A stretch of 64,000 nucleotides of DNA from a virus. The notes below the pieces were generated by a model. The model saw only the letters and a program-made list of their open reading frames with translations. It made no database searches and was not told the origin of the DNA. A program made the position numbers and the translations under genes. Shown here piece by piece: positions 12,516 to 37,128 of this stretch. Each line of letters opens with the position of its first letter. Positions within the stretch are counted from its first letter, which is position 1. Location of the stretch: IMG/VR virus record IMGVR_UViG_3300031695_000001; one strand, given 5' to 3'.

Positions 12516-12544
12516 ATTATATAACGATTCTTCTCCAATGTCAA
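12516..12544 (-). promoter_or_regulatory. sigma70-type promoter, perfect consensus
   Basis: Minus strand TTGACA (12544-12539), 17-nt spacer, TATAAT (12521-12516), 6 nt, then ATG (12509). Confidence 0.85.
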
Positions 12545-13336: not shown

Positions 13337-13357
13337 TATTTATCGTTACGATAAATA
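13337..13357. promoter_or_regulatory. palindromic bidirectional late promoter
   Basis: TATTTATCGT-T-ACGATAAATA: perfect 10-bp inverted repeat giving ATAAATA on both strands between divergent gp13 and gp14. Confidence 0.8.
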
Positions 13358-13380
13358 TGTATAATAATAGGAGAACCAAT

Positions 13381-15983: not shown

Positions 15984-15991
15984 CTATTTTT

Positions 15992-16432
15992 ATGAAAGAA
16001 ATAGTCTGTAGTGGAGCCTTATTTTATAGTTTAACAACAAAAAGATTTCTCTTTTTGCATCGAGCTAGTGGCAAACATAATAAATTATGGGGATTAGTTG
16101 GCGGTACTAACGAAGGGGCAGAAACTCCTTGGGAAGGTCTTCAGCGAGAAATTACTGAAGAAATCGGCGAGCTTCCTCCTATTACTAAAACTATGCCGTT
16201 AGAAACATTTGTATCTACTGATAGTAAGTTTTCCTTTCATACATATCTATGTGTAATTAAGGAGGAATTTATACCTAAACTTAATACAGAACATGACGGC
16301 TATGCTTGGGTAAGTTTTAGTAAATGGCCTAAGCCATTGCACCACGGATTGCGCAACACCCTTCAAAGTAAAATTAGTCTAAACAAGCTAGAAACTGTAT
16401 TTAAAGTTATTGATTTACTTGACAAATCTTAA
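15992..16432 (+). CDS. NUDIX hydrolase
   Basis: GGTNEGAETPWEGLQREITEEIG Nudix box; likely start at ATG 15992. Confidence 0.85.
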   Translation: MKEIVCSGALFYSLTTKRFLFLHRASGKHNKLWGLVGGTNEGAETPWEGLQREITEEIGELPPITKTMPLETFVSTDSKFSFHTYLCVIKEEFIPKLNTEHDGYAWVSFSKWPKPLHHGLRNTLQSKISLNKLETVFKVIDLLDKS

Positions 16433-16447
16433 CTAACCAAGTATAAT
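16419..16447 (+). promoter_or_regulatory. sigma70-type promoter, perfect consensus
   Basis: TTGACA (16419-16424), 17-nt spacer, TATAAT (16442-16447), 6 nt, then ATG (16454). Confidence 0.85.
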
Positions 16448-16453
16448 AACACT

Positions 16454-17605
16454 ATGAAAGTATTAGTTCTCGGCGATGTAATAATCGACAAATATATCTA
16501 TGGCACTTCAGAACGTTTAAGTCCTGAGGCTCCTGTACCAATTGTTAAATACCAAAAAGAAGTTTGGACAATTGGAGGTGCTGGACTTGTTTACGAAAAC
16601 TTGAAAAGCCTAGGAGTTGATGTAACACTATTTAAAACTGAACAACCTAGTAGCATTAAAACTAGAGTAATTTGCGATGGTCATTATGTTACACGCATTG
16701 ACGATGATAAACATGCAGACAGTGCCGCAGTATTAGATGCTGTACAAGCAACTGATTTTACAAAATACGACTATGTTATATTAAGTGATTATAATAAAGG
16801 TGTACTAGATGAGTCACTTAATATAATTGAACACTTAAATGCATTTGGTTGTAAAGTAATTGTAGATCCTAAGGAACATGCAAATCATTATATCAATGCC
16901 TGGCTAATAAAACCTAACTATAGTGAGTTTACTAAGTTTGGATTTATAAGCTGGCAAGGTAATATTATTACAACCAACGCTGGTGGCAATGTTGTTGCTA
17001 CAATAGATAATACAGATTACGATATTCCAGTCGAAGCTGTAGAAGTATCAGATGTTACAGGTGCAGGAGATTGTTTTTTGGCCGCATTTGTATACGGATT
17101 AACAAAGCAATACAATCATAAGCAGTGTTTAGAACTTGCTGTTAGAGGTTCTAGAGAAGCAGTTAAGCACGTAGGCACATACACACTTACAGTAACCGAT
17201 ATCGAAGATACTATTGTGTTTACTAATGGCGTATTTGATATATTACACATTGGGCACTTAAAGCTTCTTAGCCATGCCAAAACACTAGGTAATCGCTTAG
17301 TAGTGGGCATTAACAGCGATTCCAGTGTTAAGCGATTAAAAGGTGATTTAAGACCCATTAACGATGAAAGCACCCGCAAGGAAAGCCTGTTAATGCTTGG
17401 TTTTGTAGACGAGGTAATAGTGTTTGAAGAAGACACTCCGTTGGAAACAATAACCATCTTAGAGCCAAATATTATAGTAAAGGGTGGAGACTATATTCCA
17501 GCTACAGTAGTAGGAAATCATCTTGCTACAGTTGTTATTTTTCCTACAGTTGAAGGACATAGCACAACAAAGATAATTAATTATAAAGAGGAGAACACAC
17601 TATGA
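16454..17605 (+). CDS. hldE: bifunctional heptose-7-phosphate kinase / heptose-1-phosphate adenylyltransferase
   Basis: GDVIIDKY..G...RLSPEAPVP, SDYNKG, DVTGAGD (PfkB domain), then TNGVFDILHIGH, GINSDSSVKRLKG..RPIN, KGGDY, STT. Confidence 0.92.
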   Translation: MKVLVLGDVIIDKYIYGTSERLSPEAPVPIVKYQKEVWTIGGAGLVYENLKSLGVDVTLFKTEQPSSIKTRVICDGHYVTRIDDDKHADSAAVLDAVQATDFTKYDYVILSDYNKGVLDESLNIIEHLNAFGCKVIVDPKEHANHYINAWLIKPNYSEFTKFGFISWQGNIITTNAGGNVVATIDNTDYDIPVEAVEVSDVTGAGDCFLAAFVYGLTKQYNHKQCLELAVRGSREAVKHVGTYTLTVTDIEDTIVFTNGVFDILHIGHLKLLSHAKTLGNRLVVGINSDSSVKRLKGDLRPINDESTRKESLLMLGFVDEVIVFEEDTPLETITILEPNIIVKGGDYIPATVVGNHLATVVIFPTVEGHSTTKIINYKEENTL

Positions 17606-18393
17606 AATTTATAGCGGCAATGGATCACAGCGGCGGATCAACAGGCAGTGTACTAGAACGTTACGAACAAGAGTATACAGAAGAAAACAAAATGGACCTT
17701 GTCCATCAAATGCGATTGCGAATGATTAACTCGCCATTATTTAACGGTGAATATATTTGGGCGGCAATACTTTATACAGATACTATCGAACGTGGAATCA
17801 CAGAACTACTTAGAAACAAAGGTATTGAAAGCTATGTTAAAATTGATAGCGGATGCGAAGCTGATGGAACACTAAAGGCATTTAACGTTGAAGCTATGAT
17901 CGAGTTTGCTCACGAAAATGATTGCACTGGTACTAAGATGCGTAGCATTGTTAAGACTACAGACAGCATTGACCCAATATTAAAACAACAGTTTGAAATT
18001 GCGCAGACAATTGTTAACAACGGCCTAACTCCAATCGTTGAGCCAGAAGTTCCAATTGATCTTAAAGAAAAACGAGATATTGAGATACAGCTTCGACATG
18101 CAATGGAAGATTACTTAGACAACTTTAATGGACAAGTTATTTTAAAACTTACTATACCTGACGAAGCAAATTTATACCAAGCATTATCACAGCACAAAAA
18201 TGTTAAAAAGCTAGTCGGACTCAGTGGCGGTTATACAACTTCGGAAGCAGTTTCTAAACTTAGTCAACAATTAGATATGAGTGCAAGTTTTAGTAGAGCA
18301 TTAAGCGAAGGGCTGTTTGCACATCAACACCCATCCGAATTTGATAAAAAGATCTCTACAAACATTAAGAGGATCGAAGGAGCTAGTTCGTGA
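17602..18393 (+). CDS. fda: class I fructose-bisphosphate aldolase (bacterial type)
   Basis: FIAAMDHSGGST, KIDSG, GTKMRS, PIVEPEV, ILKLTIP (Schiff-base Lys), LSGGY, ASFSRALSEGL. Confidence 0.85.
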   Translation: MKFIAAMDHSGGSTGSVLERYEQEYTEENKMDLVHQMRLRMINSPLFNGEYIWAAILYTDTIERGITELLRNKGIESYVKIDSGCEADGTLKAFNVEAMIEFAHENDCTGTKMRSIVKTTDSIDPILKQQFEIAQTIVNNGLTPIVEPEVPIDLKEKRDIEIQLRHAMEDYLDNFNGQVILKLTIPDEANLYQALSQHKNVKKLVGLSGGYTTSEAVSKLSQQLDMSASFSRALSEGLFAHQHPSEFDKKISTNIKRIEGASS

Positions 18394-18653
18394 ATATTAC
18401 GCAAGCGCCGCGTCCTACTTATATACCTAATGAAACTATTAGACCAAGTGTACCGAAAGAAGATGTACATTGTGTGGACGAAAGACGGCAACAAGTAGTA
18501 TCACAAGTTAAAGTAGTACAAGAACTGTACAGTGAGAAAGCAAATAGAATTTTAGAAGAATCACGCAAAGCACAAGTACTAAGCTACGAAGCTAATGGCA
18601 AGCGTAGATTAGAAACAATACAACAAGGCACTATATTGGACGTAAAAGTATGA
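18390..18653 (+). CDS. hypothetical protein
   Basis: 87 aa, GTG start with GGAG RBS, overlapping both neighbours (GTGA/ATGA coupling). Confidence 0.55.
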   Translation: MNITQAPRPTYIPNETIRPSVPKEDVHCVDERRQQVVSQVKVVQELYSEKANRILEESRKAQVLSYEANGKRRLETIQQGTILDVKV

Positions 18654-19477
18654 AAATTTTAGTTACTGGAAGTGATGGATTTATTGGTCAAAATCTTGTT
18701 ACACACTTAATGAGTGAAGGACACGGTGTTGCCGAATACGAGTATGTAGAAAACACTGTTCCTGACTGTAGTCAGTTTGATAGAGTTATACATATGGGTG
18801 CAATTAGCAGTACTACCGAAACTGATGTTGAAAAGGTAATGAAGCAAAATTTAGACTTTAGCACTAAGCTATTGCAAGTTTGCGACATGCAAGGTGTTGA
18901 TTTAATTTATGCATCTAGTGCCAGTGTATATGGACCTACTACACATTTTACAGAAGATGGCCCGTTGCTACCGCAATCTCCATATGCTTGGAGCAAATAC
19001 TTATTTGATCGCGATGTGCAAAAATTAGATTGGAGTGAATACCAATGTAAAATACAAGGGTTGCGTTTCTTTAACGTTTACGGCGAACATGAGGATCATA
19101 AAGGTTTTCAAATGAGCGTATTTCATAAGTTTAAAGAGCAAGCAATTAGCACAGGCAAAGTTAATCCATTTGCAGGTAGTGATGATATATGTAGAGACTT
19201 TATATACGTAGGCGACATTTGTAAAATTATTTCAAAATTGTTAGTCACTGACGAAAGCGGAATATGGAATGTAGGCATGGGCAAAGCAACTAGCTTCGGT
19301 AGTGTTGCTAAATGTATTGCTGACAAATATAATGCTACTATAGAAGAAATACCAATACCTGATAGTGTAAAGAATCAGTATCAGTCGTTTACAAAAAGTA
19401 ACAACGATAAATTATTAAACACAATAGGTGAATTTAAATTCACTACACCATTTGAATGGATTGAGGAGAATAAATAA
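18650..19477 (+). CDS. hldD: ADP-L-glycero-D-manno-heptose 6-epimerase
   Basis: VTGSDGFIGQNL, HMGAISSTTE, YASSASVYG, YAWSK, LRFFNVYG..E.HKG, RDFIYV, YQSFT. Confidence 0.88.
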   Translation: MKILVTGSDGFIGQNLVTHLMSEGHGVAEYEYVENTVPDCSQFDRVIHMGAISSTTETDVEKVMKQNLDFSTKLLQVCDMQGVDLIYASSASVYGPTTHFTEDGPLLPQSPYAWSKYLFDRDVQKLDWSEYQCKIQGLRFFNVYGEHEDHKGFQMSVFHKFKEQAISTGKVNPFAGSDDICRDFIYVGDICKIISKLLVTDESGIWNVGMGKATSFGSVAKCIADKYNATIEEIPIPDSVKNQYQSFTKSNNDKLLNTIGEFKFTTPFEWIEENK

Positions 19478-19896
19478 TGGCTGAACAACCTACAAGACTA
19501 GAAGGCAAAGTAGACAAAGGCTGGGGATACGAAATTATCTGGGCAACCAATGACAAGTATTGTGGTAAAATTATGGTCTTTGAAAAGAAGGGCAATAAAT
19601 TTAGTATGCACTTTCATCGAGAAAAAGATGAAACATGGTTTGTAAATGAAGGAAGTTTTGCTGTTAGGTGGTTAGATACTAAGACAGCTACACTGTTTAC
19701 ACATACACTGACTCAGGGAATGACTTGGCACAATCCTCCGTTACGCCCACATCAGTTAGAAGCATTAGAAGATGGAAGTAGTGTTACTGAAGTTAGTACA
19801 GCGGACAGTGTTGAAGACAATTATAGAATTATTCCTGGAGATAGTCAAGCTGGAATGCACGAGCAACTTAAAGAAGAAAGTGTATCTGATGAGTAG
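19477..19896 (+). CDS. cupin-fold sugar isomerase-like protein
   Basis: KGWGYE.IW, FSMHFHREKDETW, PH.LEA, EVST....EDNYR. Confidence 0.7.
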   Translation: MAEQPTRLEGKVDKGWGYEIIWATNDKYCGKIMVFEKKGNKFSMHFHREKDETWFVNEGSFAVRWLDTKTATLFTHTLTQGMTWHNPPLRPHQLEALEDGSSVTEVSTADSVEDNYRIIPGDSQAGMHEQLKEESVSDE

Positions 19897-20533
19897 TCCG
19901 TCGATTGTATGGAGCAACGATGTTGACATTGATGCTTTAAAAGAGTTTCATCATCCTGATTATATTGCACCTAAGTGTGTAGTTGGACTAGATAGAGATG
20001 GTGTTATAAACGTAAATAATGACGACTATGTTTCTAGAGTTTCTGACTGGGAATTTGAAGAAGGCAGTCTAGATGCAATTGTTCGTATACGCAAACACGG
20101 TCATAAAATTGTAATACTTACAAACCAAGGTGGTATTGAAAGGGGATTGTATACTGAACAAGATGTAGAAAAAGTACACGCCCACATGTTTTCAGAACTC
20201 GGCAAAGCAGGGTGTCCTAGCATAGACGGGTTGTATTATAGTGCTAGTAGCCACAAAACAAATATGTATGCAAAGCCCAATGTTGGGATGTTTAAGCGAT
20301 GTGAAAAAGAAGTAAAACATATAAAATTTTCAAAGGGCTACTATGCTGGAGACAGTATTAGAGATTTAAAAGCCGCTATGAAAGTTGGTGCTAAACCTGT
20401 TCTTATTCGTACTGGACACGGCAAGGATACTGAAGAGCTTGTAAACAAACGATTTTCATACAAGCAAATTAAAAAAGCAATGATAGTATTTGATAATCTT
20501 GCAGCCTTTGCTGATTGGTTAGAAACAAAATGA
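19889..20533 (+). CDS. gmhB: D-glycero-D-manno-heptose-1,7-bisphosphate phosphatase (HAD)
   Basis: LDRDGVIN, TNQGGI, KPNVGMF, GDSIRDLKAA, LIRTGHG; likely start at ATG 19889. Confidence 0.85.
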   Translation: MSSPSIVWSNDVDIDALKEFHHPDYIAPKCVVGLDRDGVINVNNDDYVSRVSDWEFEEGSLDAIVRIRKHGHKIVILTNQGGIERGLYTEQDVEKVHAHMFSELGKAGCPSIDGLYYSASSHKTNMYAKPNVGMFKRCEKEVKHIKFSKGYYAGDSIRDLKAAMKVGAKPVLIRTGHGKDTEELVNKRFSYKQIKKAMIVFDNLAAFADWLETK

Positions 20534-21060
20534 TAATTGTTCGAGATGATTTAATTCCTCAACAACTTCAGGATCATCTCGAACTATTAGTATTTGGTGC
20601 TGAAGATATTCATGCATTGCTACCACTAACATGTAAACAGGAAACAACAGCAAACGACGGAATTAATCCGTTACCGACTAGTTTTCAGCATGTATTAAAA
20701 AGCAGTACTAAGCTAACTGACTATTACGGTACCTTTAGTAAAATACCTCAACTTGTACTAGATAAACTAGAAGTTCGTTGGGTCGATATAATACAAGCAA
20801 GATTGTTTATTACAGTTCCGCATAAAACTAAACTGCCTCACTATAAGCCGCACACAGATAGAAACGAAGATCATTTAGCACTAATATATTATGTAAATGA
20901 TTCAGACGGTGACACTGTGTTTTTTGAAAATGACAAAATAGTTAAAAGAGTATCACCTAAAAAAGGTCGAGTCATAGTGTTTGACGGAAGTCATTTGCAT
21001 GCCGGCGGCTTTCCAACCGACATACCACGCTGTATTGTAAACTACAACATACACGCTTAG
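20530..21060 (+). CDS. 2OG-Fe(II) oxygenase
   Basis: PHTD, IYYVNDSDGDT, PKKGR..FDG..LHA, RCIVNYN. Confidence 0.8.
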   Translation: MIIVRDDLIPQQLQDHLELLVFGAEDIHALLPLTCKQETTANDGINPLPTSFQHVLKSSTKLTDYYGTFSKIPQLVLDKLEVRWVDIIQARLFITVPHKTKLPHYKPHTDRNEDHLALIYYVNDSDGDTVFFENDKIVKRVSPKKGRVIVFDGSHLHAGGFPTDIPRCIVNYNIHA

Positions 21061-24000
21061 GCCTGCGCTTCGCCCCATCTAAGAATAATATTTGTCAACA
21101 CGTCTGAACCAGCAGTTTTGTATATGTTAATAGCTAAAACATCTGGACCATTTGGGAATGTACCTCTACCACCTAATGTAGTATTTGTAAGTTCCTTCAA
21201 ACTTGTAAGATCTAATGACGCTCTTTCATTTGGTGTTGCAATAAACGATAGTACAGTTTCGCCTGGTTGGGCAAATGGTGGTTGAACAAACTGTAATATA
21301 ATAGTACCACTACCACCTGGGAACGTGCCAACCATTGCATTATTAAACGTTAGTTCGTAATAAGCAGTTCCAGCAAAGTTTAATGATACAATGTTGTTAA
21401 CCAATGTACCTGAGGGGAACGTTGGATTAGTTGTATTGCCCGATATAGCAGTACCGTTAGCACCGCCTGATGCTTCCCAACTTGCCGCTGATACTAGCGC
21501 ACTGTTAGTATTTGAAACTGCTCCACCTTTTGTTAATGTTACATGGTTTGAACTGTTTGCACTGATTGACCCTGATGTCCGTCTACTTAATCTAAAGTAA
21601 CCATAACTGCCGGAGGAAGCAATGTATGCATCTTGTACTGTTGTGTTAGATTGAATGTTAGTTCCAGATATTGGTACACCAATAACAGATTCAGTTTCGT
21701 ATGTTCCAAATGTAGCTCTAAAATCAACAGCATTAATATACAAGTACTGACTATTATTACCTGTATTATATATTCCACTGTCTAATACCGCAGTAATTGG
21801 AGTAAGTGCATTAAGTGTAGTTTCTGTCGCTGCCGCACCAGTTGACCATGTAATACCAGCACCAGACGCAATCTGTGCAAAGCTAGGTTGTCCACCTTGT
21901 GCAAGTCCTGATAATCCTGTCCAGTTAACCAGTGACGGGTTAGTTGGATAGTTTTGTGGGTTAAGTACCCCTTCAACAACAATGCCGCCTGTGCTAGTTT
22001 CTGAAGTAATTTCTAGTCCTGTTAGTAATAGCTGTGCTCTGTTTAGTAGTTCTCTTTCACCCAAGTCACCTACAATAGCGTTTGACACACTAGGTGCTAG
22101 TCTAATCATAAATGCTGTTTGTCTTGTTGTACTAACAGTAATAGCTTGTTCAGCGTATGAGAAAATATAACCACGATCTTCATCAAAGCCGCCGTCTGTT
22201 ATAAATGCACTACCCCAGTGACTAATTAACGGTGTTGTTGTATTACTAACTAACACAACTCCAACACTTGCGGCATGTACTGCTGCCGGACCAGCGGTGT
22301 ACGTTCTTGCCGCACCTGCTTGGAAGTTTGTTAAGCCTGCCGCTCTAGTGCAGCCTGTTAGTGTATTATTTGATTCGGTTCTGCCAGTATAAGTTATAAG
22401 CTCGTTGTTAATAAACAATGTACCTGCGTTTGGAAAGAAGTCTACATCGTCTAAATTTAGTGTTGTATCAGCAATAGCTACTGCTGTTCTTAATTTACCC
22501 ATTGCACCTTCGTTAGTAACTTCATAACGCACAGGTAAGTTACCTGATCTCATAAATGCTTCTGTGTTAATGTTTGAGTTACGCATTCTGTGAGCATACA
22601 CAAAGTTACCATCTGCTCCACGTACCATAAAGTCAATAAAACCAGCACCGTACCATGAATATTCAATTCCGATCATTTGCATCTTTGATATTTCTAATGC
22701 ATAACCACTTGGGCCAGTTCCGTCCATTCTGTCTAGATTAAAGTCAGCTTGTCTAACTTTCTTATCACTTACTAAACAAACTTTTGCACCTAGTGCAGTG
22801 TTTACTCCGCGATAGTCCGGAGTAACGTTAATTTCTGTTTGGCTATTAACATGCGAAACAACATGCGTCATTCCTCTAATAACAATTCTGTCACCAGTTT
22901 TTAATTGATCTTGGAAGCGGGTGTTTAACCCAGTTACTACGTTTGTATCTGGTGCAATAGTTGCAGTACCAGCAGTTTGCTTAGTTGAAGTACGCTGATT
23001 AACTAATAAGTTAGTACCATCATACTCCCAATAAATTCCGTTTTGGTCATCAAACACACCTGAGCGTACTGTAGCACCGTGCCATTGCTTAGTTGAAACT
23101 TGTGCATTAAAACTTAATGTTGCCGTAGTTGCGCCTAATCTTAAATTTGCTGTAACTTCAAATGTACGTTCATCTATAATATCATTAACTGTATATGTAC
23201 TATTATATCCTGCTGTAGTAATACCAATAATATTAACTATGCCGCCAATTTGTAGTCCGTGATCGTTATCGTCACATGTTACAGTAATAGTCGATCCTGT
23301 TTCTAATCCAGACGATGTACATGAACGTAGATCGTAACTTGGAGCAAATAACGCACCAGTTGTATACATAATACCCTTACCTGATTGGTAACGAATATAC
23401 TTTTTACTTTGACGTATTGCTTGTGCGCCATGTTGTGGTCCACCTGTGCCTAATTGCACACCACCGTCATATGGTCTGTGAATAAAGAAGCTGTCTGGTC
23501 TCGGATACACAGTAGCGTTAACAATATTAGTAGCATCTGTAACAATTGCACCAACTGCACGAGCTGTGTAGTCTAACGAGCTTTTAGTTGGAATTGCTAT
23601 AGCTAAGAATGATCCAGCCGCTAAGTTGTGATTATTTGAATTATTATCACTTGATACTGTTGTAATAAATGTATCACCTGGTACTAGTCCATGTGGGCTA
23701 TCAAACGTAATTCTCATAGTAGCTAGTGCTTCGAACGTAATATTTGCAAGTAAAGCTAATTGTGCTGTTACTGCCGCATCGATTGTTATAGTTGAATACA
23801 ATGCTAAATCATCTCCAGCATATGCATCGCCCAAAGCTGTGTATGTTACAACTGAACCAGAACTATCAATACTCGCAACTGATATTGTAATATCATGTAC
23901 TGTAGGAGATCCGCCTAGACTTCCACCTCCAATTAATAATCTATTACCAACCGCATACCCATTACCAGGGTTGCCACCGCTAATAGTATATGTACCTATT

Positions 24001-28502: not shown

Positions 28503-28505
28503 GTT

Positions 28506-29465
28506 CTAAATTCCTAGTGCGATTGCAAGCGATGTTGCCGTTGAGTCTACATACTTTTTATTACTTATGTCAGTATTGCCTGTAGGATCACTCGTTACGG
28601 TAGCTGTAGTAAAAGCCGCTGTTGACGGAGTCGTTGCACCTATTGTGGTGCCGTTGATTGTTGTTGCTGTTACTGGAACTGTTGATCCAGTCGGTCCTAC
28701 AATACCAATTTGTGTACTGCCGATAATTACTTCTATTTTATTGCCTGCGTCTAAGACAATATTTGTTCCTGCTTTAAATTCAGCAACACCTAATCCATTT
28801 GCGTTAATACCTGTTGCTGTTATTGTTCCGCCAACAAACATATCTTTAGCTACACTTGCGCCGCCTGCTACAACTAAACTACCTATGCCAATGCCAGTTG
28901 AGTCAGTTGTTGCATTTACTGCTAATGATTGTATTGCTGTTGATCCAGTTACAATTAAGCTACTAAAACTACCAGTGCCTGTTACTACCGGATCAACTAC
29001 TGTAATAGTGCCCTTTGGTGTACCGTCTGCATCACCGTAATATAGTGTAGATGGCGCATCTGCTGGAACTGAGACAACAAGTTTGCCTGTTGTCTTTCCT
29101 TGAGCAGATGCTCCTGTTGTTATAGTATTATCAGTTGCAGTGTGTGCTATTCCTACATTGTATAATGTTGTACCATCTGTGTTTATTAAGTTAAATGTTA
29201 TAGATGATAATGTTAGCGTAAACGAATACGAAGTTCCTCTTGTAAATTCTATACTAGGATTATCTGTTGCCGCTACTGTAAAATCATCACTAGCTAATCT
29301 AAAATTACTAGAAACTTCAGTAGCCGAGTAATCACCTGACGTACTAGATGCGCCTCCGCCAACATATTGCAACGAAGTAACAACAACGTTACCTGCGTTG
29401 TCAACAGTAAACCCTGGACTTTTATATCCAAACTCTGATTCAAATTGACGGTATTCTATAGCCAC
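28506..29465 (-). CDS. virion structural protein (fibre-like)
   Basis: G/T/S-rich, degenerate cupredoxin-like segment (RGTSYSF...APSTLYY), NKKYVD motif, C-terminal LAIALG. Late box at 29488-29494. Confidence 0.6.
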   Translation of the reverse strand: MAIEYRQFESEFGYKSPGFTVDNAGNVVVTSLQYVGGGASSTSGDYSATEVSSNFRLASDDFTVAATDNPSIEFTRGTSYSFTLTLSSITFNLINTDGTTLYNVGIAHTATDNTITTGASAQGKTTGKLVVSVPADAPSTLYYGDADGTPKGTITVVDPVVTGTGSFSSLIVTGSTAIQSLAVNATTDSTGIGIGSLVVAGGASVAKDMFVGGTITATGINANGLGVAEFKAGTNIVLDAGNKIEVIIGSTQIGIVGPTGSTVPVTATTINGTTIGATTPSTAAFTTATVTSDPTGNTDISNKKYVDSTATSLAIALGI

Positions 29466-29504
29466 TTAACATGTCTCCAATTTAATATATTTATCCACTT
29501 ATGG

Positions 29505-29894
29505 TTATGCGTGGCTACGGAAATATGTAGCTGAAAAGAATGCCTTTGCACCTTTGTCAGCGGCTGTTTTAGGGTTTAATATAAGTTGAACATACGAGTT
29601 TGTAACGCTTGTTGTAACGCTAACTATATCGCGTGTTGTACTTGCTCTTCCGTATACTACTACTGATGCGGTATCCGGCGATGCTGTTAGTAATACCTTA
29701 ATTACTTCTTTAACATCTTTGCCGTTTTCAACGTTAATAGTGTATTCAGCAGAGGAAAAATCTCCCATATGCCATTCATCAATAACCAGGTCGCTTTGGA
29801 CTTCTTTCCACATACCTTCGTATGAAAAGTTTATTCCACCCTTCAATAAGATTGTGCTTCGAAGTCCTTTTTTTAGAAATTTAGTTAAATCCAT
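29505..29894 (-). CDS. small virion structural protein
   Basis: 129 aa, FSSAEYTI...VYG beta-rich pattern. Late box at 29919-29925. Confidence 0.55.
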   Translation of the reverse strand: MDLTKFLKKGLRSTILLKGGINFSYEGMWKEVQSDLVIDEWHMGDFSSAEYTINVENGKDVKEVIKVLLTASPDTASVVVYGRASTTRDIVSVTTSVTNSYVQLILNPKTAADKGAKAFFSATYFRSHA

Positions 29895-29927
29895 TATAGT
29901 ATCCTAATATCTACAATGTATTTATCG

Positions 29928-31739
29928 CTATTCCTTATTGGCAACAGTTACAAGTTTACCAAATTCTGGCAAATATAAGTATTCTATATCACTTTGCTTT
30001 AATGTCCAAATTGCATCTTCTATAGTTTCAACAAGTGGTTCACCGCCTAAGTTAAAGCTAGTGTTGAATATTATCGAACACCCTGTCTTTTCTTTAAACG
30101 CCTTAATTAAACTATAATAGTTTGGATTTTGTTCTTCAGTTACTGTTTGTATTCTGCAAGTTCCGTCAACATGTATAATACTAGGTATCTTTTCTGCAAT
30201 GCCTGGTTGGCAGTTAACAGCATACATCATATGCGGACTATCTTCCATGCCACGTAGATCAAACCATTCGTGTACGTCTTCTGCTAGAATAGAGCCTGCA
30301 AATGGACGGAAGTATTCTCGGTGCTTAACATCATTAACATAGTCTTTGCCGTCTTCAAATGTAGGATCAAATAACACGCTTCTATTACCTAATGCACGTG
30401 GCCCGTTTTCACTTCTTCCTTGGAACAATGTAACAATATTTTTCTTAGTTAACAGATCAACAATATCTTCGTTAGTTGCGTCGGTAATAGTTACACCGTC
30501 TACTGTAGTCTTATCAATAATATCTTTTTCAGTATAGTTATTGTTAGGACCTAAGTACAACGATTGTGTTTGTACAACTTTTGAATCTTCTTCTAAGCCG
30601 TACCAAAACATCATTGCCGCGCCCATTGCTGTACCTGCATCATTACTTACTGGTTCAACATATACTTCAATGCCTTCGTCTTTAAGTGCTTCTAAATAAT
30701 GATAATTAGCAACACAGTTTAATCCGTAGCCGCCGCTTATTACTACTTTCTTTTTACCAGTCAGTTCAACAGCATTTCTAATTAAATTTGTAACTTGATC
30801 TTGTGTTTGTGTCTGACACGCATATGCCATATCACGTCTGCTATCTAACAACGTTAAGTCGTCTTTAGTTTCCATTTGATTAACTTCATTTAAGAAGTCG
30901 TATATTCCACTGTTTACAATAGCACCATTTGGGTAATTAGGAACAATTACATTTCTGTTTGATAGTGGGTAAATTGACTCTTCGTCAAACAACTTAGGTA
31001 TAGCATCGTTAGGCTTACCATATGGAAATAATCCCATAGTTTTTCCAGCTTCTATTCCGCTCCATCCACAGTATTGTGTAACTGCTTCGTATACTTTAAC
31101 AATACCTGCTCTGTCACTTACTATTGCATCGTGCATCCCACCGTTTTCACCAAACATGTCTGACGGCATTTTTGTTAAGCCGCCCGGGATTGGTTCTCTA
31201 GTTCCGTATACTTTAAATTTAGTATTAAATTCTGCAGGGTAATCGCAGTCAATAATGCTTTCTACTTCCCAGCTCATCACTTGCTCGTTGTTAATACTTA
31301 ATGGTATAAATGTGCCTGCTCCGTCGACGATTACACTTACTGCGCTATCAAACCCGCTTCTGTAAAATCCACACGCCGAATGTAGTTTGTGGTGCATAAA
31401 TGCTAAGTCAATAACCTGAGGATGTTCGTAAGATGTTGAATTTGATTTTTGATCAATTAATCCCAATTTACGTGCTAACCCGGTATACATATCATCTCCG
31501 CTGTAGTCAATTTTGCCAGCAGTTTCTTTTAACGGTTGAGTATGTGCAACTACTAAGTAGTCAATTTTATCAGTATAATCTAAAATTTTAACCATACTTG
31601 CAAATGGCCCGCCATCATACTTTTGCCTAGACAACCGTTCTTCTTCAATAGAAAATACAACTTCGCCGTCTTTAAGTAAACATACACCACTGTTGTGGCC
31701 TCTTGCTATTCCCGCGATCCAAATTGGTTTCTTGCTCAT
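29928..31739 (-). CDS. carbamoyltransferase (NodU/CmcH/TobZ family)
   Basis: GHNSGVCL, EEERLSRQKYD, HHKLH, VDGAG, GKTMGL.PYG, SGGYGLNCVAN, DAGTAMGAA, GRSENGPRALGNRS, KHREYFRPFA, HVDGTCRIQTV, NTSFNLGGEPLV. Confidence 0.92.
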   Translation of the reverse strand: MSKKPIWIAGIARGHNSGVCLLKDGEVVFSIEEERLSRQKYDGGPFASMVKILDYTDKIDYLVVAHTQPLKETAGKIDYSGDDMYTGLARKLGLIDQKSNSTSYEHPQVIDLAFMHHKLHSACGFYRSGFDSAVSVIVDGAGTFIPLSINNEQVMSWEVESIIDCDYPAEFNTKFKVYGTREPIPGGLTKMPSDMFGENGGMHDAIVSDRAGIVKVYEAVTQYCGWSGIEAGKTMGLFPYGKPNDAIPKLFDEESIYPLSNRNVIVPNYPNGAIVNSGIYDFLNEVNQMETKDDLTLLDSRRDMAYACQTQTQDQVTNLIRNAVELTGKKKVVISGGYGLNCVANYHYLEALKDEGIEVYVEPVSNDAGTAMGAAMMFWYGLEEDSKVVQTQSLYLGPNNNYTEKDIIDKTTVDGVTITDATNEDIVDLLTKKNIVTLFQGRSENGPRALGNRSVLFDPTFEDGKDYVNDVKHREYFRPFAGSILAEDVHEWFDLRGMEDSPHMMYAVNCQPGIAEKIPSIIHVDGTCRIQTVTEEQNPNYYSLIKAFKEKTGCSIIFNTSFNLGGEPLVETIEDAIWTLKQSDIEYLYLPEFGKLVTVANKE

Positions 31740-32603
31740 TTAAAATCCTCTGTATCTGTTACCTTGCCACTCGGGCAAGTTATTATATATTGTTTCACAA
31801 AATAAATTAAAATCTCTGTGAGTCTCTTTATACATTGTGTTAACTTTATCTATCCAAATTTCTGTTTGTTTGCTTAGATCCTGGCTATTTTTAAGTTTTG
31901 GTTTAACTTGTGTTAGTAAATATTCTGCATGTTGATTTATGCTAGGATGTCTGTCAGTAACAAACACTCCGTTGTCATTAAACTTAAAATGACTAAGTTT
32001 GCTATTCCACGCTGTAGTACCTACTGGAGCAATCCAGTTGTCGTCTGCATTTATTAAATCTTTGTATATAGATAATTCAGGAATATCTTTCCATATGTTA
32101 CTAGTAGTACCTACTTCGCCCATTCCTGCGTCTGGATAGTCTGAGTTCATTTTTTCAATTTCGCCCATGCTAGTCATAAACCAATTACATTGTAAACTTT
32201 TTAAAAACCCTTGGGCTAATAAAATATTATTCAGCATATGCAGTGTGTAACTAGTCTCGTCCCAAAATGTTTTAATCCAAGTATCATTGTACGTTTTAGC
32301 ATTAATATAATTAAATATACTTCCGCAAGTTTTCCAACCTACTCCGTGACTACATCCTTCTCGACGATTGTCAGTAGTATGATAATCGTTTCGCAAATGA
32401 CTAGTCCATTGTACAATTACAGTATCGGTTGACGTGAGGTGTTGTCTTGCATGTAGTTCGGTTAGGCGTTCGCATATTGCACGATTGCCTAACCCTGGAT
32501 ATCCCCAGTTTTCGTATGTGTCGTATTCAGTTCCTAGCATGTCAGCCCAAGTTGGCCAAGCATAATTACTAAAACTGCATCCTAATACGAATAGTCGAGA
32601 CAT
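31740..32603 (-). CDS. SGNH-like hydrolase/acyltransferase
   Basis: LFVLGCSFS...WPTWAD, NWGYPGLGN, VQWT, C-terminal DRHPS. Confidence 0.6.
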   Translation of the reverse strand: MSRLFVLGCSFSNYAWPTWADMLGTEYDTYENWGYPGLGNRAICERLTELHARQHLTSTDTVIVQWTSHLRNDYHTTDNRREGCSHGVGWKTCGSIFNYINAKTYNDTWIKTFWDETSYTLHMLNNILLAQGFLKSLQCNWFMTSMGEIEKMNSDYPDAGMGEVGTTSNIWKDIPELSIYKDLINADDNWIAPVGTTAWNSKLSHFKFNDNGVFVTDRHPSINQHAEYLLTQVKPKLKNSQDLSKQTEIWIDKVNTMYKETHRDFNLFCETIYNNLPEWQGNRYRGF

Positions 32604-33673
32604 TACTTAGAGCTTTTAATATTAAGTTCAGCGTCGACTACGTCTGCTATGTTTTCAAATACTGCGTCAACAGTATCATCATCTATAACTTTAGGCAGTT
32701 GTCCTGCACCTACTTCTGGCTCTTCATCATGCCCAGTGTGTACAAGCGTACCATTAACAACACCAACCACATAATCAACAATATTACTATCCATTGACAT
32801 TAAACTTTCGTTATGTCGATTAGTTGACTCTTCTTGGGTAATACGAATAGGATCATATATCCTGTCAGATTCGCCTAGGTCTAATACGTTAAAGTTTTCA
32901 GCGTCTGGATATGACACATTTATTGGGAAAGTAGATCCATGTATTGCTGTAGTAGTTGTACCTACACAATACGATAAGTGTTGTCCTACACTATCGCATC
33001 CTAAGAAGTGATCAGCGTATTTAATCATTGATGCCCATTGTCTTATATTCAACCCTTCGGGCATAGCTATTTCATTTTTTAAGCCTTCACCTTTAAGGTC
33101 AATTTTAAGTTCACTCATCATAACAATAGCATAATCCTTTTCTAGTTTTTTGAGCATAGTCTTTAGATCTTTAAACTCAAAACTTCTAGCAGTGTGATCA
33201 ACCGGTGTGTCGTCGATAATTTCAATACCACGGCCAAACGGCTGTATTACTAATAGCTTATCTTTTTTGATTTTTTCTTTAACTTCGTTGACTAACTTAC
33301 GGCCCACAAGTAGTTCTTCTTTACTAAGTTTCATTGTAGGTCTAGGTAGCTCACGTACACCTTTGCCATTTAGTTCAATGTCAAACGCTTGTGCTAAACT
33401 ACACTTTTGATTATAGTATTCCCAAACCCTGTACGGCTCTGGATATGATACATCTCTGTTTTTTAGAACATCTTTAAATAAGTTTTTATGCCAAGGATCA
33501 TATGCCCTAGCATCTAATGTTGGATGTCCTTTAAACATGTCTGTGCCACCTTCGCACACGATGACAAATTCAGTATCACCTGACTCTTGTTCGTATAATT
33601 CTAATGCGGGTATGGAACACAGCATTCTACCTGCGCCGCCATTTAAAAAAAATGCTTTTGATCTTGTTGTCAT
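32603..33673 (-). CDS. GT-B glycosyltransferase, GT9 (ADP-heptosyltransferase)-like
   Basis: N-terminal FLNGGAGRMLCSIPAL, VIQPFG, C-terminal IKYADHFLGCDSVGQHL (GT9 DS-x-x-x-H motif), HGST. Confidence 0.7.
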   Translation of the reverse strand: MTTRSKAFFLNGGAGRMLCSIPALELYEQESGDTEFVIVCEGGTDMFKGHPTLDARAYDPWHKNLFKDVLKNRDVSYPEPYRVWEYYNQKCSLAQAFDIELNGKGVRELPRPTMKLSKEELLVGRKLVNEVKEKIKKDKLLVIQPFGRGIEIIDDTPVDHTARSFEFKDLKTMLKKLEKDYAIVMMSELKIDLKGEGLKNEIAMPEGLNIRQWASMIKYADHFLGCDSVGQHLSYCVGTTTTAIHGSTFPINVSYPDAENFNVLDLGESDRIYDPIRITQEESTNRHNESLMSMDSNIVDYVVGVVNGTLVHTGHDEEPEVGAGQLPKVIDDDTVDAVFENIADVVDAELNIKSSK

Positions 33674-33691
33674 TTTACTCTCTTACTCCAT

Positions 33692-33747
33692 AAAAAAAGA
33701 CTGGGTCTACTAGTATATATCAACCACATACTAGTGACCCAGTCTTT
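33692..33747 (-). terminator. long intrinsic terminator hairpin with embedded promoter-like box
   Basis: AAAGACUGGGUC-ACUAGUAU-N11-AUACUAGU-A-GACCCAGUCUUUUUUU: about 20-bp stem plus U7. Confidence 0.8.
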
Positions 33748-33773
33748 ACTGGATTGAGAGAAACTTCTTTAGT

Positions 33774-34469
33774 TTATTCTTGGTCTGGCATCTCAAAGTA
33801 AGGAAGTACTGCACTTGGAAATGGTATTTTCCAATGATTAATTCCTGCATATCTTACATCTGCAACAACTACTTTAAGCCAAGCAGTATAATCAACTAAT
33901 GTTTGACGATCTTCTGCTGTCAAGACATTGTTAGCTTCGTCCAATAATGCACCATCAATAGTAGCTGCCTGTCGGCGTGCCCCGGCAATCACTGACGCTC
34001 TATCGTTAACGTGTGTTCTAAACGTAGGTCCTGACCAGCCGTCACCGACTATGTCATTTAGTAACGATTCGCCCCAGTGTAAGTGGGCAAGCATGCCAGA
34101 TGTACCTTCGTATTGATGAGTCCACGTCCATTCGTTGCCGTCAGCATCTTCAATATTTTCTTCGTAATCTGCTATATCTGCATGCGTATATTCATGTGTA
34201 ACATATGCACAGCGCATTGCGTTGGCAGCACTAGAATGTGCATCTACTGTACAATAAAGATAGTCGTCTTGTTCAAAATATGATTCATCAAGACTTCGAT
34301 CATCAGCTTTGTCGCCACGTCCGGCTTCTCTGCATTGAAAGTCATCTTTATCAATTTGCATTAAGACATATCTAGGTCCTGTATAAGTACATTCAAAAGA
34401 CAAGCCGGATTCGGTTGTCGTATAGTATGGTTGGTCTGGTAAATTTACCGTAAATGTTTGGTTAGCCAT
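33774..34469 (-). CDS. hypothetical acidic protein, possible tail-fibre assembly chaperone
   Basis: Follows the Cys-rich pair. The C-terminal 'L.DY..WLK...HWKIPFP' resembles Tfa-like chaperone ends. Late box at 34492-34498. Confidence 0.45.
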   Translation of the reverse strand: MANQTFTVNLPDQPYYTTTESGLSFECTYTGPRYVLMQIDKDDFQCREAGRGDKADDRSLDESYFEQDDYLYCTVDAHSSAANAMRCAYVTHEYTHADIADYEENIEDADGNEWTWTHQYEGTSGMLAHLHWGESLLNDIVGDGWSGPTFRTHVNDRASVIAGARRQAATIDGALLDEANNVLTAEDRQTLVDYTAWLKVVVADVRYAGINHWKIPFPSAVLPYFEMPDQE

Positions 34470-34497
34470 TTTTGTTTCTCTCCGTTTTAATTATTTA

Positions 34498-35457
34498 TTA
34501 AGTTGCCACAAATCTAATTTTGATTATGGAATCTCCGCCAGCCCAACCGTTATCTCTAACGCCTGAACAAGGCATAGCTGGTGCGCCACCATGACCGTGT
34601 GGTACATACATTGTACAACCTAACGTATCATAACAACCGCAATGTCTTACTCCGTTCCAACAGTTAGTCCATGGTGACCCTTGTGTTGGCATTCTGCTCA
34701 TTGAGTTTAGTGCTTGTAAGTAACCTGAAAATCCCATGCCTGACCAGTTTGACATACCGTTGTCACTTTCTTGTGCATATGAAAAGACTCCGCCGCCTTC
34801 ACTATGGTATCCTGGCGGAATAGCTACGTGATGCGATGTACTACAGTTACAGTTTGGATAACAATGCCAGTAAGTAGTACAACTAATATTGCCCATTTTC
34901 TGAACATCGCCGCCGTATGCACATGCACACCAAGCACTCGGACAGTGGTTACATATTAATCCACAGTAACTACCGTACTGAGTAGAGCAAAACCCGTTTG
35001 CACTCATACAACACCAACGTGCTGTACTTGTTGAACAAAAACTAGTTCCTGATCTACCGCCTTCTGCACATATACAACCGCTTGTGCCGTTGCCATTCCA
35101 ACATAACATTCCTGCTTCTGAACAACCTCTGTTACATATTTGGCTTGCATTCCTGCAACTCTTTCCTGCATGCATACATATCCAACAGCCTGCTGCCATA
35201 GTTAAATTATTTTTCTTAACATACGCTCCAGAATTTCCTGGTAGCGTTGCTGAACAACAGCACATTCTAGATCCGCTGCCACCTGCTCCGATAACTTCTA
35301 CGTCAACAGTGCCTGCCGCTGGTGCAATCCAGCAATGACACCCACCTTGTGTAGTGTATTCAACTACTGTTGAAAACGCAAACATTTTTCCTGGTTCTAG
35401 GTTATCTTCAAGTGCCGGTGGTGACCGAGTTTGTAATATTGATGCTAATGTTGCCAT
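34498..35457 (-). CDS. Cys/Gly-rich virion protein, paralogue A
   Basis: EVIGAGGSG glycine-rich fibre-domain motif, MCCC, about 31 Cys in 319 aa (hand count), GG..IIKIRF end. Confidence 0.75.
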   Translation of the reverse strand: MATLASILQTRSPPALEDNLEPGKMFAFSTVVEYTTQGGCHCWIAPAAGTVDVEVIGAGGSGSRMCCCSATLPGNSGAYVKKNNLTMAAGCWICMHAGKSCRNASQICNRGCSEAGMLCWNGNGTSGCICAEGGRSGTSFCSTSTARWCCMSANGFCSTQYGSYCGLICNHCPSAWCACAYGGDVQKMGNISCTTYWHCYPNCNCSTSHHVAIPPGYHSEGGGVFSYAQESDNGMSNWSGMGFSGYLQALNSMSRMPTQGSPWTNCWNGVRHCGCYDTLGCTMYVPHGHGGAPAMPCSGVRDNGWAGGDSIIKIRFVAT

Positions 35458-35465
35458 TGTGTCTC

Positions 35466-36422
35466 CTAACTCTCTATAAACTTAATTCTAATTGCGCCCA
35501 TACCACCTCGATGAGCGTGGTCTCTAACACCCGGACAAGGAAATGGTCCGTGACCTCCTACACCGTATGGTACATTACTTTGACAACCGTTTGAGTTATA
35601 GCAACCGCAACTGTTGTCACTTGTGTAACATGCTTTCCATGGTATACCTGAACCTGGTGTTTTGCCTGCGCCTGCTAACATAGCAACTGTTTGTCCATAA
35701 CCCATGCCGCTCCACTTGGATGCTGACGTATCGTTTGAATTTGCAAATCCAACAACGCCTCCGCACACAGCTATCATTCCTGGGGGGAATGCAACATATG
35801 ATCTAGTTTGACATATACACGCCGGATAACAACCCGTAAACGCCATACAACTTATGTTTCCGCATATATTAACATCGCCGCCATACGCAATTGCGTCATG
35901 CTGGCCGCTACACTGATTACATATCATACCGCACTGTGGTCCTATGTTTGTTCCACAAAAACCGCCTGCAAGGAAACAGCAATACATTGATGGGGTTGTT
36001 GAACAATAACTAACGCCGCCTTTGCCGCCTCTAGCGCACATGCAGCCGTTTGTCGAAGTACTAGTCCAACACACTGTTGAAGGTTCTGAACAACCTCTAA
36101 AACATAGTGCATCGGAGTTTCCGCAAGCAAATCCCGTACATCCCCACATAAACTGACTTGTTGTCATGTTTATTACTTTCTTAGCATATGATCCCGAGTT
36201 GCCTGGAATACCTCCACCACAACAACACATCTTTGCTCCACTGCCGCCTGCACCCCAAACTTCTATGGTTGCAACGCCAGTTGCCGTAGGACACCAGCAC
36301 CAACACTTACATGCTTTGGTGTAAGTATTGCCTTCTGCAAAGCTATATATTCTACCAGTCTCGAGGTTTTGCTCGCTTCCGCTTGGAACTTTAGCTTTTA
36401 ATAATGTTTCTAATGATGCCAT
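35466..36422 (-). CDS. Cys/Gly-rich virion protein, paralogue B
   Basis: EVWGAGGSG, MCCC, about 32 Cys in 318 aa, GGMGAIRIKF end. Confidence 0.75.
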   Translation of the reverse strand: MASLETLLKAKVPSGSEQNLETGRIYSFAEGNTYTKACKCWCWCPTATGVATIEVWGAGGSGAKMCCCGGGIPGNSGSYAKKVINMTTSQFMWGCTGFACGNSDALCFRGCSEPSTVCWTSTSTNGCMCARGGKGGVSYCSTTPSMYCCFLAGGFCGTNIGPQCGMICNQCSGQHDAIAYGGDVNICGNISCMAFTGCYPACICQTRSYVAFPPGMIAVCGGVVGFANSNDTSASKWSGMGYGQTVAMLAGAGKTPGSGIPWKACYTSDNSCGCYNSNGCQSNVPYGVGGHGPFPCPGVRDHAHRGGMGAIRIKFIES

Positions 36423-36450: not shown

Positions 36451-36783
36451 TTAAACTGCGCCAATGATCCAACCGTATGTGCTGCCACTATACGTTAGTG
36501 TAACAATTGCTCCTGCTACGTCAATAATTAAGTCTTCAGTAGCTCCGTTAATTTTAGCACTATTTCGGCCTATTGTTATAGAATTACTGCTTGCATTACC
36601 TGCAATATCCAATACCTGTATTGAGTCGCCAGTAAGTACTGTTGCAACTGCTGGCAATGTAATAGTGAATGCACTACTAGCAACGTTTGCCAGTATTCTG
36701 TCGTTTACTACAGCACTGTATGTAGTACTAACTTCTCTGTTAGTAACTCCAGCTGTACCAATTGTTGTAATATATCTTCCCAT
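36451..36783 (-). CDS. small tail-fibre-associated protein (T4 gp34-repeat-like domain)
   Basis: AFTITLP...GDSIQVLD..G....NSITIGRN..KING...DL...LTY....GW pattern. Confidence 0.6.
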   Translation of the reverse strand: MGRYITTIGTAGVTNREVSTTYSAVVNDRILANVASSAFTITLPAVATVLTGDSIQVLDIAGNASSNSITIGRNSAKINGATEDLIIDVAGAIVTLTYSGSTYGWIIGAV

Positions 36784-36807
36784 GGTTGTTTTCCTTTATC
36801 CTTTAAA

Positions 36808-37128
36808 TTACGCTGTTGAGGTCTCAATGCCCATGCACACTGCTGATGCGTTTGCCGCACTACAATATGCTACTATATTTTGTGTAGCCGCTAATACTAT
36901 ACCAGTTCGTTCTAGTACACCCTTAGCAAGTATTTCTACATCATACTCAATGTATTCAGCGTTCGTTGGTGTGCCGGATGCTGAAACTGCTATGCGCATT
37001 GTTACGGCTTGGTTGCCTCTGTTAACGATATTTAAACTTGCAATAGTGTATGTGTCTGCCGGAGCAGTATATACCGTTGTATTCGTTGCCGCACTCATAT
37101 CGTTTGCGCCTAATCTTCCTGTTGCCAT
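36808..37128 (-). CDS. small virion adaptor-like protein (family with 48216..48545 and 59621..59959)
   Basis: 106 aa all-beta; TTVYTAP, NIVN, IVL motifs. Confidence 0.6.
   Translation of the reverse strand: MATGRLGANDMSAATNTTVYTAPADTYTIASLNIVNRGNQAVTMRIAVSASGTPTNAEYIEYDVEILAKGVLERTGIVLAATQNIVAYCSAANASAVCMGIETSTA

Follow-up and report, generated by a model that had tools for sequence, protein, structure and literature searches.

A candidate phage-encoded heptose supply, transfer and carbamoylation system linked to tail-fibre genes in a jumbo myovirus contig

Background

Why would a phage carry genes for making an activated heptose, and on what would it place the sugar? The question is raised by a 64,000-nucleotide stretch of the IMG/VR virus record IMGVR_UViG_3300031695_000001 (the window), which holds an operon for ADP-heptose supply and, within a tail-fibre block, genes for a GT9-like transferase, an SGNH-fold enzyme and a NodU-type carbamoyltransferase (CT). 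The window, from an uncultured marine jumbo phage, sits in a 122-kb viral contig of 35% estimated completeness, the complete related records being 353-364 kb. An earlier sequence-only reading had proposed that the phage makes its own nucleotide-heptose and installs a carbamoylated or acylated heptose, most plausibly on its tail proteins, alternatively on host lipopolysaccharide (LPS) or on DNA. The analysis presented here indicates that the supply, transfer and tailoring genes probably belong to one system, and we propose, tentatively, that its acceptor is a virion fibre protein.

Some genes of the heptose set (T4-GC 304, 305, 307 and 308) were listed among the cyanophage 'LPS genes' in 2010, when the functionality of these genes was still not known (Sullivan et al., PMC3037559). 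From the first genomes onwards, no function has been demonstrated for cyanomyovirus 'LPS genes', and we found no description in the literature of a linkage between GT9-like, CT and cysteine-rich (Cys-rich) genes. The interest of the locus lies in a phage-only GT9-like family, a CT and a self-contained ADP-heptose supply that are tied to Cys-rich fibre proteins across unrelated lineages.

Results and Discussion

Transfer and tailoring enzymes

At 33673-29928 the sequence-only reading had described a GT9-like, SGNH and CT operon, and this is what we found, the first two enzymes being recognised by fold and the third by Pfam. The genes are tightly packed, sharing position 32603 and abutting at 31739/31740 (aa, amino acids):

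32603-33673, minus strand: GT9-fold heptosyltransferase-like enzyme, 356 aa (fold and family profile)
31740-32603, minus strand: SGNH/GDSL-fold esterase or acyltransferase, 287 aa (fold and conserved blocks)
29928-31739, minus strand: NodU/CmcH/TobZ-type O-carbamoyltransferase, 603 aa (both Pfam CT domains above cut-off)

The 356-aa protein matched nothing in Pfam above threshold. Its AlphaFold model (pTM 0.78), compared with the PDB by Foldseek, retrieved exclusively GT9 enzymes among the listed matches to rank 27 (3TOV, TibC, WaaF and WaaC; E 2e-9 to 7e-7). At the sequence level, a narrow profile (A1) gave chance matches only against the PDB and a broader one (A4) was needed; the profile of 53 diverse family members reached WaaF (E 0.008) and WaaC, 24 of the 53 matched PF01075 individually at E<=0.01, and hhalign placed residues 4-251 onto residues 1-288 of Escherichia coli WaaC (E 1e-4). 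The enzyme retains the ADP-heptose-binding motif D-[ST]-G-x-x-H, its D227, S228 and H232 corresponding to WaaC D261, T262 and H266, and in the family D227 and H232 are invariant and S228 nearly so. In both the HMMER and the hhalign alignments, the position of the WaaC catalytic base (Asp13) is occupied by Arg16, a residue conserved in at least 90% of the 53 members, which suggests that the acceptor chemistry is non-canonical.

The GT9-like family comprises 529 representative clusters among 1.84e9 proteins. A scan of 185,579 species genomes with profile A1 disclosed only 10 loci, all of them in metagenome-assembled genomes (MAGs) of scattered taxa, where they probably represent phage contigs binned in error; judged by this distribution, the clade is phage-restricted. 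The MAG loci include L092 and L096, on a 335-kb and a 153-kb contig of a MAG labelled Neomarinimicrobiota, and L090 and L093, in MAGs labelled Methanobacteriota. Outside the cyanophages, Vibrio phage D505 (78 kb) has a 245-aa member (L100:9001-9738, hhalign E 3.5e-34) that keeps the Arg and is flanked by giant virion genes (2109 aa and 1756 aa). About 31 Vibrio phage records carry a GT9-like homologue and no Vibrio phage appeared among the HldE matches, as expected if the Vibrio host supplies ADP-heptose.

The SGNH protein showed no Pfam match and, with its profile, no PDB sequence match, and tblastn with the window protein found no homologue in cultured phages. All top Foldseek matches of its model (pLDDT 84.6) were SGNH/GDSL esterases, and S10 (in G-C-S), G37/G39, N40, N101 and H219-P220 are invariant, with an acidic residue at -2. 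The CT has both the Kae1-like N-terminal domain (Carbam_trans_N, PF02543, E 5e-26, 92 bits, cut-off 24) and the YrdC-like C-terminal domain (Carbam_trans_C, PF16861, E 7e-59, 199 bits, cut-off 27), matches phrog_1601 (E 1e-168) and is 63.7% identical to the S-SSM7 enzyme. Neither a signal peptide nor a membrane segment was predicted in the GT9-like, SGNH and CT proteins, which on this prediction are soluble and cytoplasmic.

Heptose supply

The supply genes lie at 16454-21060, and profile matches agree with the identities (hldE, hldD, gmhB, cupin and aldolase) previously given to them:

16419-16447, plus strand: sigma-70-type promoter (TTGACA, 17 nt, TATAAT), 12/12 match, ending 6 nt before the hldE ATG
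16454-17605, plus strand: fused HldE-like heptose-7-phosphate kinase and heptose-1-phosphate adenylyltransferase (AT), 383 aa (NF008454, E 2e-78)
17602-18393, plus strand: class-I fructose/sedoheptulose-bisphosphate aldolase-like protein, 263 aa (PRK05377, E 1.3e-71, below cut-off)
18390-18653, plus strand: open reading frame (ORF) of 87 aa, without match in Pfam, NCBIfam and PHROG searches
18650-19477, plus strand: HldD-like ADP-heptose 6-epimerase of the short-chain dehydrogenase/reductase (SDR) type, 275 aa (TIGR02197, E 1.6e-70)
19477-19896, plus strand: metal-binding cupin (invariant metal ligands, isomerase-like profile matches)
19772-20533, plus strand: GmhB-like heptose-1,7-bisphosphate 7-phosphatase, HAD-IIIA (NF006506, E 4.9e-40)
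20515-21060, plus strand: 2-oxoglutarate (2OG)-Fe(II) oxygenase, prolyl-hydroxylase-like (PF13640, E 5e-8; FlmC-family, E 1.5e-9)

Both HldE domains, GmhB and HldD are all present, with E 2e-78, 5e-40 and 1.6e-70 to equivalog models. Since all NCBIfam scores of the supply-module proteins fall below the curated equivalog cut-offs, we consider the enzymes to be divergent members of their families. HldE also matches TIGR02198 and TIGR02199 (below the curated cut-offs) and, in Pfam, PfkB and CTP_transf_like; its homology search returned a large metagenomic family only and did not reveal its origin. The HldD-like SDR scores 238 with TIGR02197 (cut-off 275) and matches Pfam Epimerase at E 4e-34. The GmhB domain begins at residue 70 of the ORF and an ATG at codon 40 (19889) overlaps the cupin stop, so that this ATG is probably the true start; the gene is missing from the complete relative G010 and from the Kyanoviridae cassettes. 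The aldolase-like gene is confined to the closest relatives of the window (G001 and G002). The promoter would drive early expression of the operon by the host polymerase.

Of the ADP-heptose route, HldE, GmhB and HldD are represented; for the GmhA step we found no SIS-type gene: neither the 122-kb record nor the complete relatives G010 and G016 contained a match to SIS_2. The neighbouring cupin is, on balance, a likely candidate for a sedoheptulose-7-phosphate ketol-isomerase doing this step. Its His-His-Glu-His metal site (H45, H47, E52 and H92) is invariant, and in a search of the PDB its profile retrieved 2Y0O, a D-lyxose isomerase, as best match (E 1.3e-6), with L-ribose and D-lyxose/mannose isomerases next. 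All 14 cupin orthologues weakly matched PF07385 (Lyx_isomer), below cut-off and with a best E of 0.003, and the atlas neighbours agree; generic cupins (oxalate decarboxylase, quercetinase) score with the profile too. The proposal draws on the fact that lyxose/mannose isomerases yield the same manno configuration. The cupin travels with the kinase and AT in the cassettes looked at in detail. A role as an RmlC-type epimerase was rejected as the first choice because the metal ligands are invariant.

With regard to the other genes of the operon, the aldolase-like protein had no match in the PHROG families and its gene (17602-18393) could be an unreported auxiliary metabolic gene. In P-SSM2 and S-SSM7, oxygenases comparable to that at 20515-21060 border the heptose cassette. 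G001 lacks the 87-aa ORF at the corresponding position, and identification of this ORF with T4-GC306, annotated as 'phosphoheptose isomerase' (about 110 aa), was rejected because the sequences are unrelated. T4-GC306 itself has no Pfam SIS match and no counterpart in the window; its genes are found in cyanophage records at L001:14762-15085, L003:14903-15247 and L002:19459-19794, and the isomerase annotation looks unsupported.

Linkage between the modules

Synteny was scored in 80 viral contigs with GT9 relatives plus the cultured phages, using 10-kb flanks; as these fall short of HldE where a giant gene intervenes, whole records were searched for it instead. A CT gene followed the GT9-like gene on the same strand in all 82 scored loci (median gap 44 nt), and wherever SGNH was possessed (17/17 loci) it lay exactly between the two. 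Upstream of GT9, on the same strand, the genes for Cys-rich proteins, for the conserved proteins p231, p110 and p106 and for a fibre were present in 54-69 loci. Kinase and AT were present in all relatives whose completeness reached 76% (G005, G010 and G016). In G010 (364 kb) all these genes are on one strand, and supply and transfer genes form one block in the order fibre, p106, p110, three Cys-rich genes, p231, GT9, CT, p129, giant fibre, AT, kinase, cupin and epimerase. Similarly, GT9, CT and the heptose cassette are contiguous in S-CAM1, S-SSM7 and P-SSM2, with fibre genes on both sides. In S-SSM7, a second carbamoyltransferase, denV, a tryptophan halogenase and a small methyltransferase lie between CT and the heptose genes (L002:14258-17402).

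Tblastn with the Cys-rich proteins of the window gave no match in phages, the sequences being too divergent for the database E-value, and the family was therefore traced with the Kyanoviridae copies as queries. Among 50,697 phage records it was found only in S-CAM1, S-CAM3, S-SSM7/6a, Sf-FS3, P-SSM2, P-SSM5 and single-cell fragments, and every cultured species that has it also has the GT9-like gene. In turn, all cultured cyanophage species with the GT9-like gene have kinase and AT. Co-occurrence and synteny, which the sequence-only reading had named among its checks, show the modules to be coupled with each other and with the Cys-rich genes, and the minimal conserved set consists of supply, GT9 and CT.

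The supply genes also bear signs of replacement. Identity between the window and G010 is 66% for GT9, 70% for CT and 71% for the cupin, and 35% and 45% for kinase and AT, which in G010 are closer to those of S-CAM1 (44% and 50%, respectively). This fits a window lineage that replaced kinase and AT and kept GT9, CT and cupin, and such a replacement would point to selection on the pathway as a whole.

The same data bear on the possibility that the modules are unlinked, the heptose operon being an auxiliary metabolic island and the GT9-like enzyme and CT using another donor or target while co-travelling with the fibres. In the window the two modules are indeed about 9 kb apart, on opposite strands and under different promoter types; P-TIM68, S-T4 and Sf-CH5/8 have a heptose cassette and no GT9-like gene, and most of the 145 phage records with CT homologues lack that gene. 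We consider this explanation improbable, because the near-complete relatives all carry both modules, the genes are contiguous in several lineages, the supply persisted through gene replacement, the heptose-binding motif is conserved and kinase and AT accompany the GT9-like gene in the cultured cyanophages. Moreover, the Vibrio phages have the GT9-like gene and no pathway, and their hosts would be expected to make ADP-heptose. A single system comprising supply, transfer and tailoring is in our judgement likely.

Enzymes of the NodU/TobZ/CmcH type usually tailor small molecules, and the product could accordingly be a soluble, natural-product-like carbamoylated heptoside acting on the host or on competitors, a notion to which the halogenase, methyltransferase, second CT and oxygenases of the S-SSM7 cluster lend some colour. 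However, the window has no scaffold-forming enzymes, the invariant partners of the enzymes are fibre proteins rather than biosynthetic genes, and the conserved minimum holds nothing else than supply, GT9 and CT. We regard a soluble product as quite improbable.

On the basis of the gene identities we infer the donor sugar and the order of the steps as follows. The aldolase would supply sedoheptulose phosphate, and the cupin would convert sedoheptulose-7-phosphate to heptose-7-phosphate in place of GmhA. HldE would then phosphorylate C1, GmhB strip the 7-phosphate and HldE adenylylate the product, which HldD would epimerise at C6 to ADP-glycero-manno-heptose. This supply operon would be of the early type and the transfer enzymes, encoded within the late tail-fibre block, would act subsequently: the phage-specific GT9-like enzyme would transfer the heptose, the NodU-type CT would O-carbamoylate it and, in the window lineage only, SGNH would add or remove an acyl group. 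The predicted outcome is a host-recognition surface decorated with carbamoyl-heptose.

The acceptor

The genes around the transfer enzymes are the following:

37141-42531, minus strand: tail fibre protein at the head of the block, 1796 aa (phrog_9851, E 7e-206)
36451-37128, minus strand: two small tail-fibre-like proteins, p110 and p106 (110 and 106 aa; PHROG tail/tail-fibre), upstream in 64-65 loci
35466-36422, minus strand: Cys-rich glycine-rich-domain protein B, 318 aa, 32 Cys (viral Gly_rich_2 clusters as atlas neighbours)
34498-35457, minus strand: Cys-rich glycine-rich-domain protein A, 319 aa, 31 Cys (phrog_4205)
33774-34469, minus strand: p231, acidic and conserved, 231 aa (phrog_9740, E 2e-7), upstream on the same strand in 54 loci
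33692-33747, minus strand: terminator-like hairpin with a U7 run (-37.6 kcal/mol, z -7.2, 0/200 shuffles as stable)
29505-29894, minus strand: p129, conserved, 129 aa, downstream of CT on the same strand in 55 loci
28506-29465, minus strand: Ser/Thr/Gly-rich fibre-like protein, 319 aa (27.6% Ser+Thr; family searches without match)
21057-28502, minus strand: giant virion structural/fibre protein, 2481 aa (phrog_5838, E 1.6e-238, and a short-tail-fibre match), separating the two modules
58145-59098, minus strand: third Cys-rich paralogue, 317 aa, in a second fibre cluster (52% identity to protein B)

The two proteins noted earlier as Cys-rich are so: of about 318 residues each, 31 and 32 are Cys (a content of approximately 10%). 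PF21722 (Gly_rich_2) was matched by 5 of 11 family members (best E 4e-10), and the family profile found no solved relative among PDB sequences. The position of the enzymes directly downstream of these genes and p231, a protein that may be structural or a chaperone, was also right as to order, with the qualification that the hairpin intervenes between p231 and GT9. The giant fibre gene is kept in 65 of 85 scanned loci.

Linkage of the GT9-like gene to fibre genes was seen in three unrelated phage lineages. Together with the strict Cys-rich co-occurrence, the phage-only family, the cytoplasmic location predicted for the enzymes, the cyanophage hosts that lack canonical acceptors and the non-canonical catalytic residue, this leads us to favour virion fibre proteins as acceptor, a proposal that we rate at somewhat below even chances. 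Within the fibre tip, the Cys-rich glycine-rich-domain paralogues encoded just upstream would be the likeliest target.

Several points weigh against this proposal. The GT9 assignment of the window protein falls short in standard models (PF01075, 13 bits, cut-off 22; TIGR02201, 18.9 bits, cut-off 170), and a protein of this kind without the catalytic Asp might be inactive as a transferase. The hairpin at 33692-33747 is a stable structure separating the p231 and GT9 genes, although it could equally be an attenuator lowering the expression of the enzymes relative to that of the structural genes. Synteny and co-occurrence could reflect co-inheritance of a block in a plastic region and not an enzyme-substrate relation. 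Placement among structural genes, which had been taken to favour a virion target, is weak evidence by itself: in P-TIM68 and S-T4, where neither the GT9-like nor the Cys-rich gene was found, the heptose cassette stands with other, unrelated glycosyltransferases near hli and off the structural genes, so that heptose use by phages is not confined to fibres. Finally, no psbA was found in the record or in its complete relatives, and the argument that the host lacks heptose is valid for the cyanophage carriers only.

DNA was another acceptor contemplated by the sequence-only reading. The heptose would then be placed on a modified base as glucose is on hydroxymethylcytosine in T4. T4-type phages glycosylate their DNA with GT-B enzymes, and the backbone of the present phage is distantly T4-like. 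However, a ThyA-like hydroxymethylase was found neither in the record of the window nor in the complete relatives, and with no obvious hydroxymethyl acceptor this alternative is weakened. In addition, the genes sit among fibre genes, away from DNA metabolism, and no DNA glucosyltransferase fold ranks above GT9 in the Foldseek results. DNA hypermodification is thus most improbable.

The host envelope deserves closer consideration. ADP-heptose could be used at the cytoplasmic face on a host glycan carried by a lipid (the LPS core, the O-antigen or some other surface polymer) and the heptose carbamoylated, so altering the surface of the infected cell and, for example, blocking superinfection or the sticking of progeny to debris. 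The nearest characterised enzymes, by both structure and sequence, are the LPS heptosyltransferases WaaF and WaaC; carbamoyl-heptose is known in the Pseudomonas LPS inner core (PMC8005017), part of the heptose gene set has been classed as 'LPS genes' (PMC3037559), and the P-TIM68 and S-T4 cassettes lie in polysaccharide-type clusters. Yet cyanobacterial LPS is devoid of 3-deoxy-D-manno-oct-2-ulosonic acid (Kdo) and heptose, the acceptors concerned (PMC4390846). This and the replaced catalytic Asp weaken the canonical inner-core form of the LPS alternative raised before, and we retain it in the broader, envelope form. Also at odds with the envelope are a GT9-like family without cellular homologues, unlike typical host-derived LPS genes, the fibre linkage in three lineages with strict Cys-rich co-occurrence, and enzymes with no membrane-association signal. 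Altogether, we judge envelope remodelling rather unlikely.

Comparison with known systems

A functional parallel to a virion fibre acceptor is that of TibC and AAH, which heptosylate the adhesins TibA and AIDA-I in the cytoplasm from ADP-heptose and are encoded beside their substrates (PMC4358343; PDB 4RAP). Like them, the phage enzyme is a GT9-type GT-B protein, and TibC is among its top structural matches. TibC has a catalytic Asp110, an N-terminal beta-barrel, a thumb formed by a beta-hairpin, and a four-Cys iron finger (PMC4358343). In contrast, strand 1 of the phage model starts from residue 6 and is followed at once by a G-G-A-G-R loop, leaving no N-terminal beta-barrel; the protein has 5 Cys in all, with no C-terminal cluster that could form the iron finger; and Arg stands at the Asp110 position. 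Moreover, the candidate substrates in the phage are Cys/Gly-rich, whereas those of TibC/AAH are Ser-rich beta-helix repeats.

In Pseudomonas, the putative carbamoyltransferase WapO (PA5005) accounts for 7-O-carbamoyl-heptose in the LPS inner core (PMC8005017), and the set WaaC/WaaF plus WapO shares with the phage the pairing of GT9 and carbamoyltransferase and the same predicted carbamoylated heptose. The Pseudomonas acceptor is Kdo2-lipid A or heptose, both lacking in cyanophage hosts (PMC4390846). Furthermore, the phage GT9 has no catalytic Asp and its genes are linked to fibres, not to core-oligosaccharide genes.

The set most similar in gene content is the cyanomyovirus T4-GC 302-308 (PSSM2_307-313 in P-SSM2, SSSM7_120-133 in S-SSM7 and SXBG_00216-222 in S-CAM1), which has orthologous GT9-like, CT, AT, kinase, cupin and epimerase genes between tail-fibre genes. 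The window differs in its backbone, which is that of a jumbo PA5oct/Atu_ph07-like myovirus and not of Kyanoviridae. Its two modules stand on opposite strands, its kinase and AT form a fused xenologue, T4-GC306 is missing, and there are additional genes for GmhB, class-I aldolase and SGNH. The window contributes the module on a jumbo, non-Kyanoviridae backbone, the SGNH inserted between GT9 and CT, the swapped and separately promoted supply cassette and the comparison with Vibrio phages.

With regard to the general concept of phage enzymes glycosylating their own virion proteins, the mycobacteriophages of Freeman et al. 2023 reportedly have virion proteins glycosylated by phage-encoded glycosyltransferases. 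The enzyme families, sugars and phage groups are said to differ from the present ones, and those phages to have no dedicated sugar-nucleotide pathway of the heptose type.

Heptosylated virions, if they prove to exist, would add a new layer to the determination of host range among viruses that are some of the most abundant in the ocean, and would involve a new GT9 chemistry without the canonical base plus a non-orthologous replacement of GmhA. A bolder version, which we regard as a long shot, is that the Arg-for-Asp enzyme represents a new class of protein glycosyltransferase and that, before O-carbamoylation, it heptosylates the Cys-rich proteins of the fibre tip at an unusual nucleophile; this might be the thiolate of a cysteine (S-heptosylation), for instance, or a residue hydroxylated by the neighbouring 2OG oxygenase. 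This would constitute a previously unknown post-translational modification of virions, tuning host recognition in abundant marine phages. Cultured carriers exist in S-CAM1, S-SSM7 and P-SSM2.

Genome context and other features

The neck genes lie ahead of the supply operon:

12558-13316, minus strand: gp13, in divergent orientation to gp14-gp15
13357-14541, plus strand: gp14-like gene
14541-15983, plus strand: gp15

The nearest relatives of gp15 are in jumbo myoviruses (Sinorhizobium phage Phosso, Pseudomonas phage PA5oct and Agrobacterium phage Atu_ph07) and not in Kyanoviridae. By these similarities, the phage has a jumbo-myovirus backbone, with PA5oct, Atu_ph07 and Phosso as its relatives. 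A NUDIX gene (15959-16432) was rejected as a member of the heptose cassette and assigned to the backbone, because in PA5oct-type phages, too, NUDIX comes directly after gp15. No match was obtained when the whole region was compared with the phage collection by megablast. Despite the different backbone, the fibre/GT9/CT block is common to the window and Kyanoviridae at 40-64% identity, which suggests that the block has been exchanged between phage families.

The T4 late-promoter core TATAAATA is present in 1 copy in 64 kb (10258-10265, minus strand), compared with 8.8 expected from shuffles, and for this reason the late promoters of the phage probably have another motif. A second 12/12 sigma-70-type promoter was observed at 12516-12544 (minus strand), ahead of the genes at 10613-12509 (minus strand), which lie beside the neck genes and encode two 2OG-Fe(II) oxygenases (phrog_81) and a deoxynucleoside monophosphate kinase.

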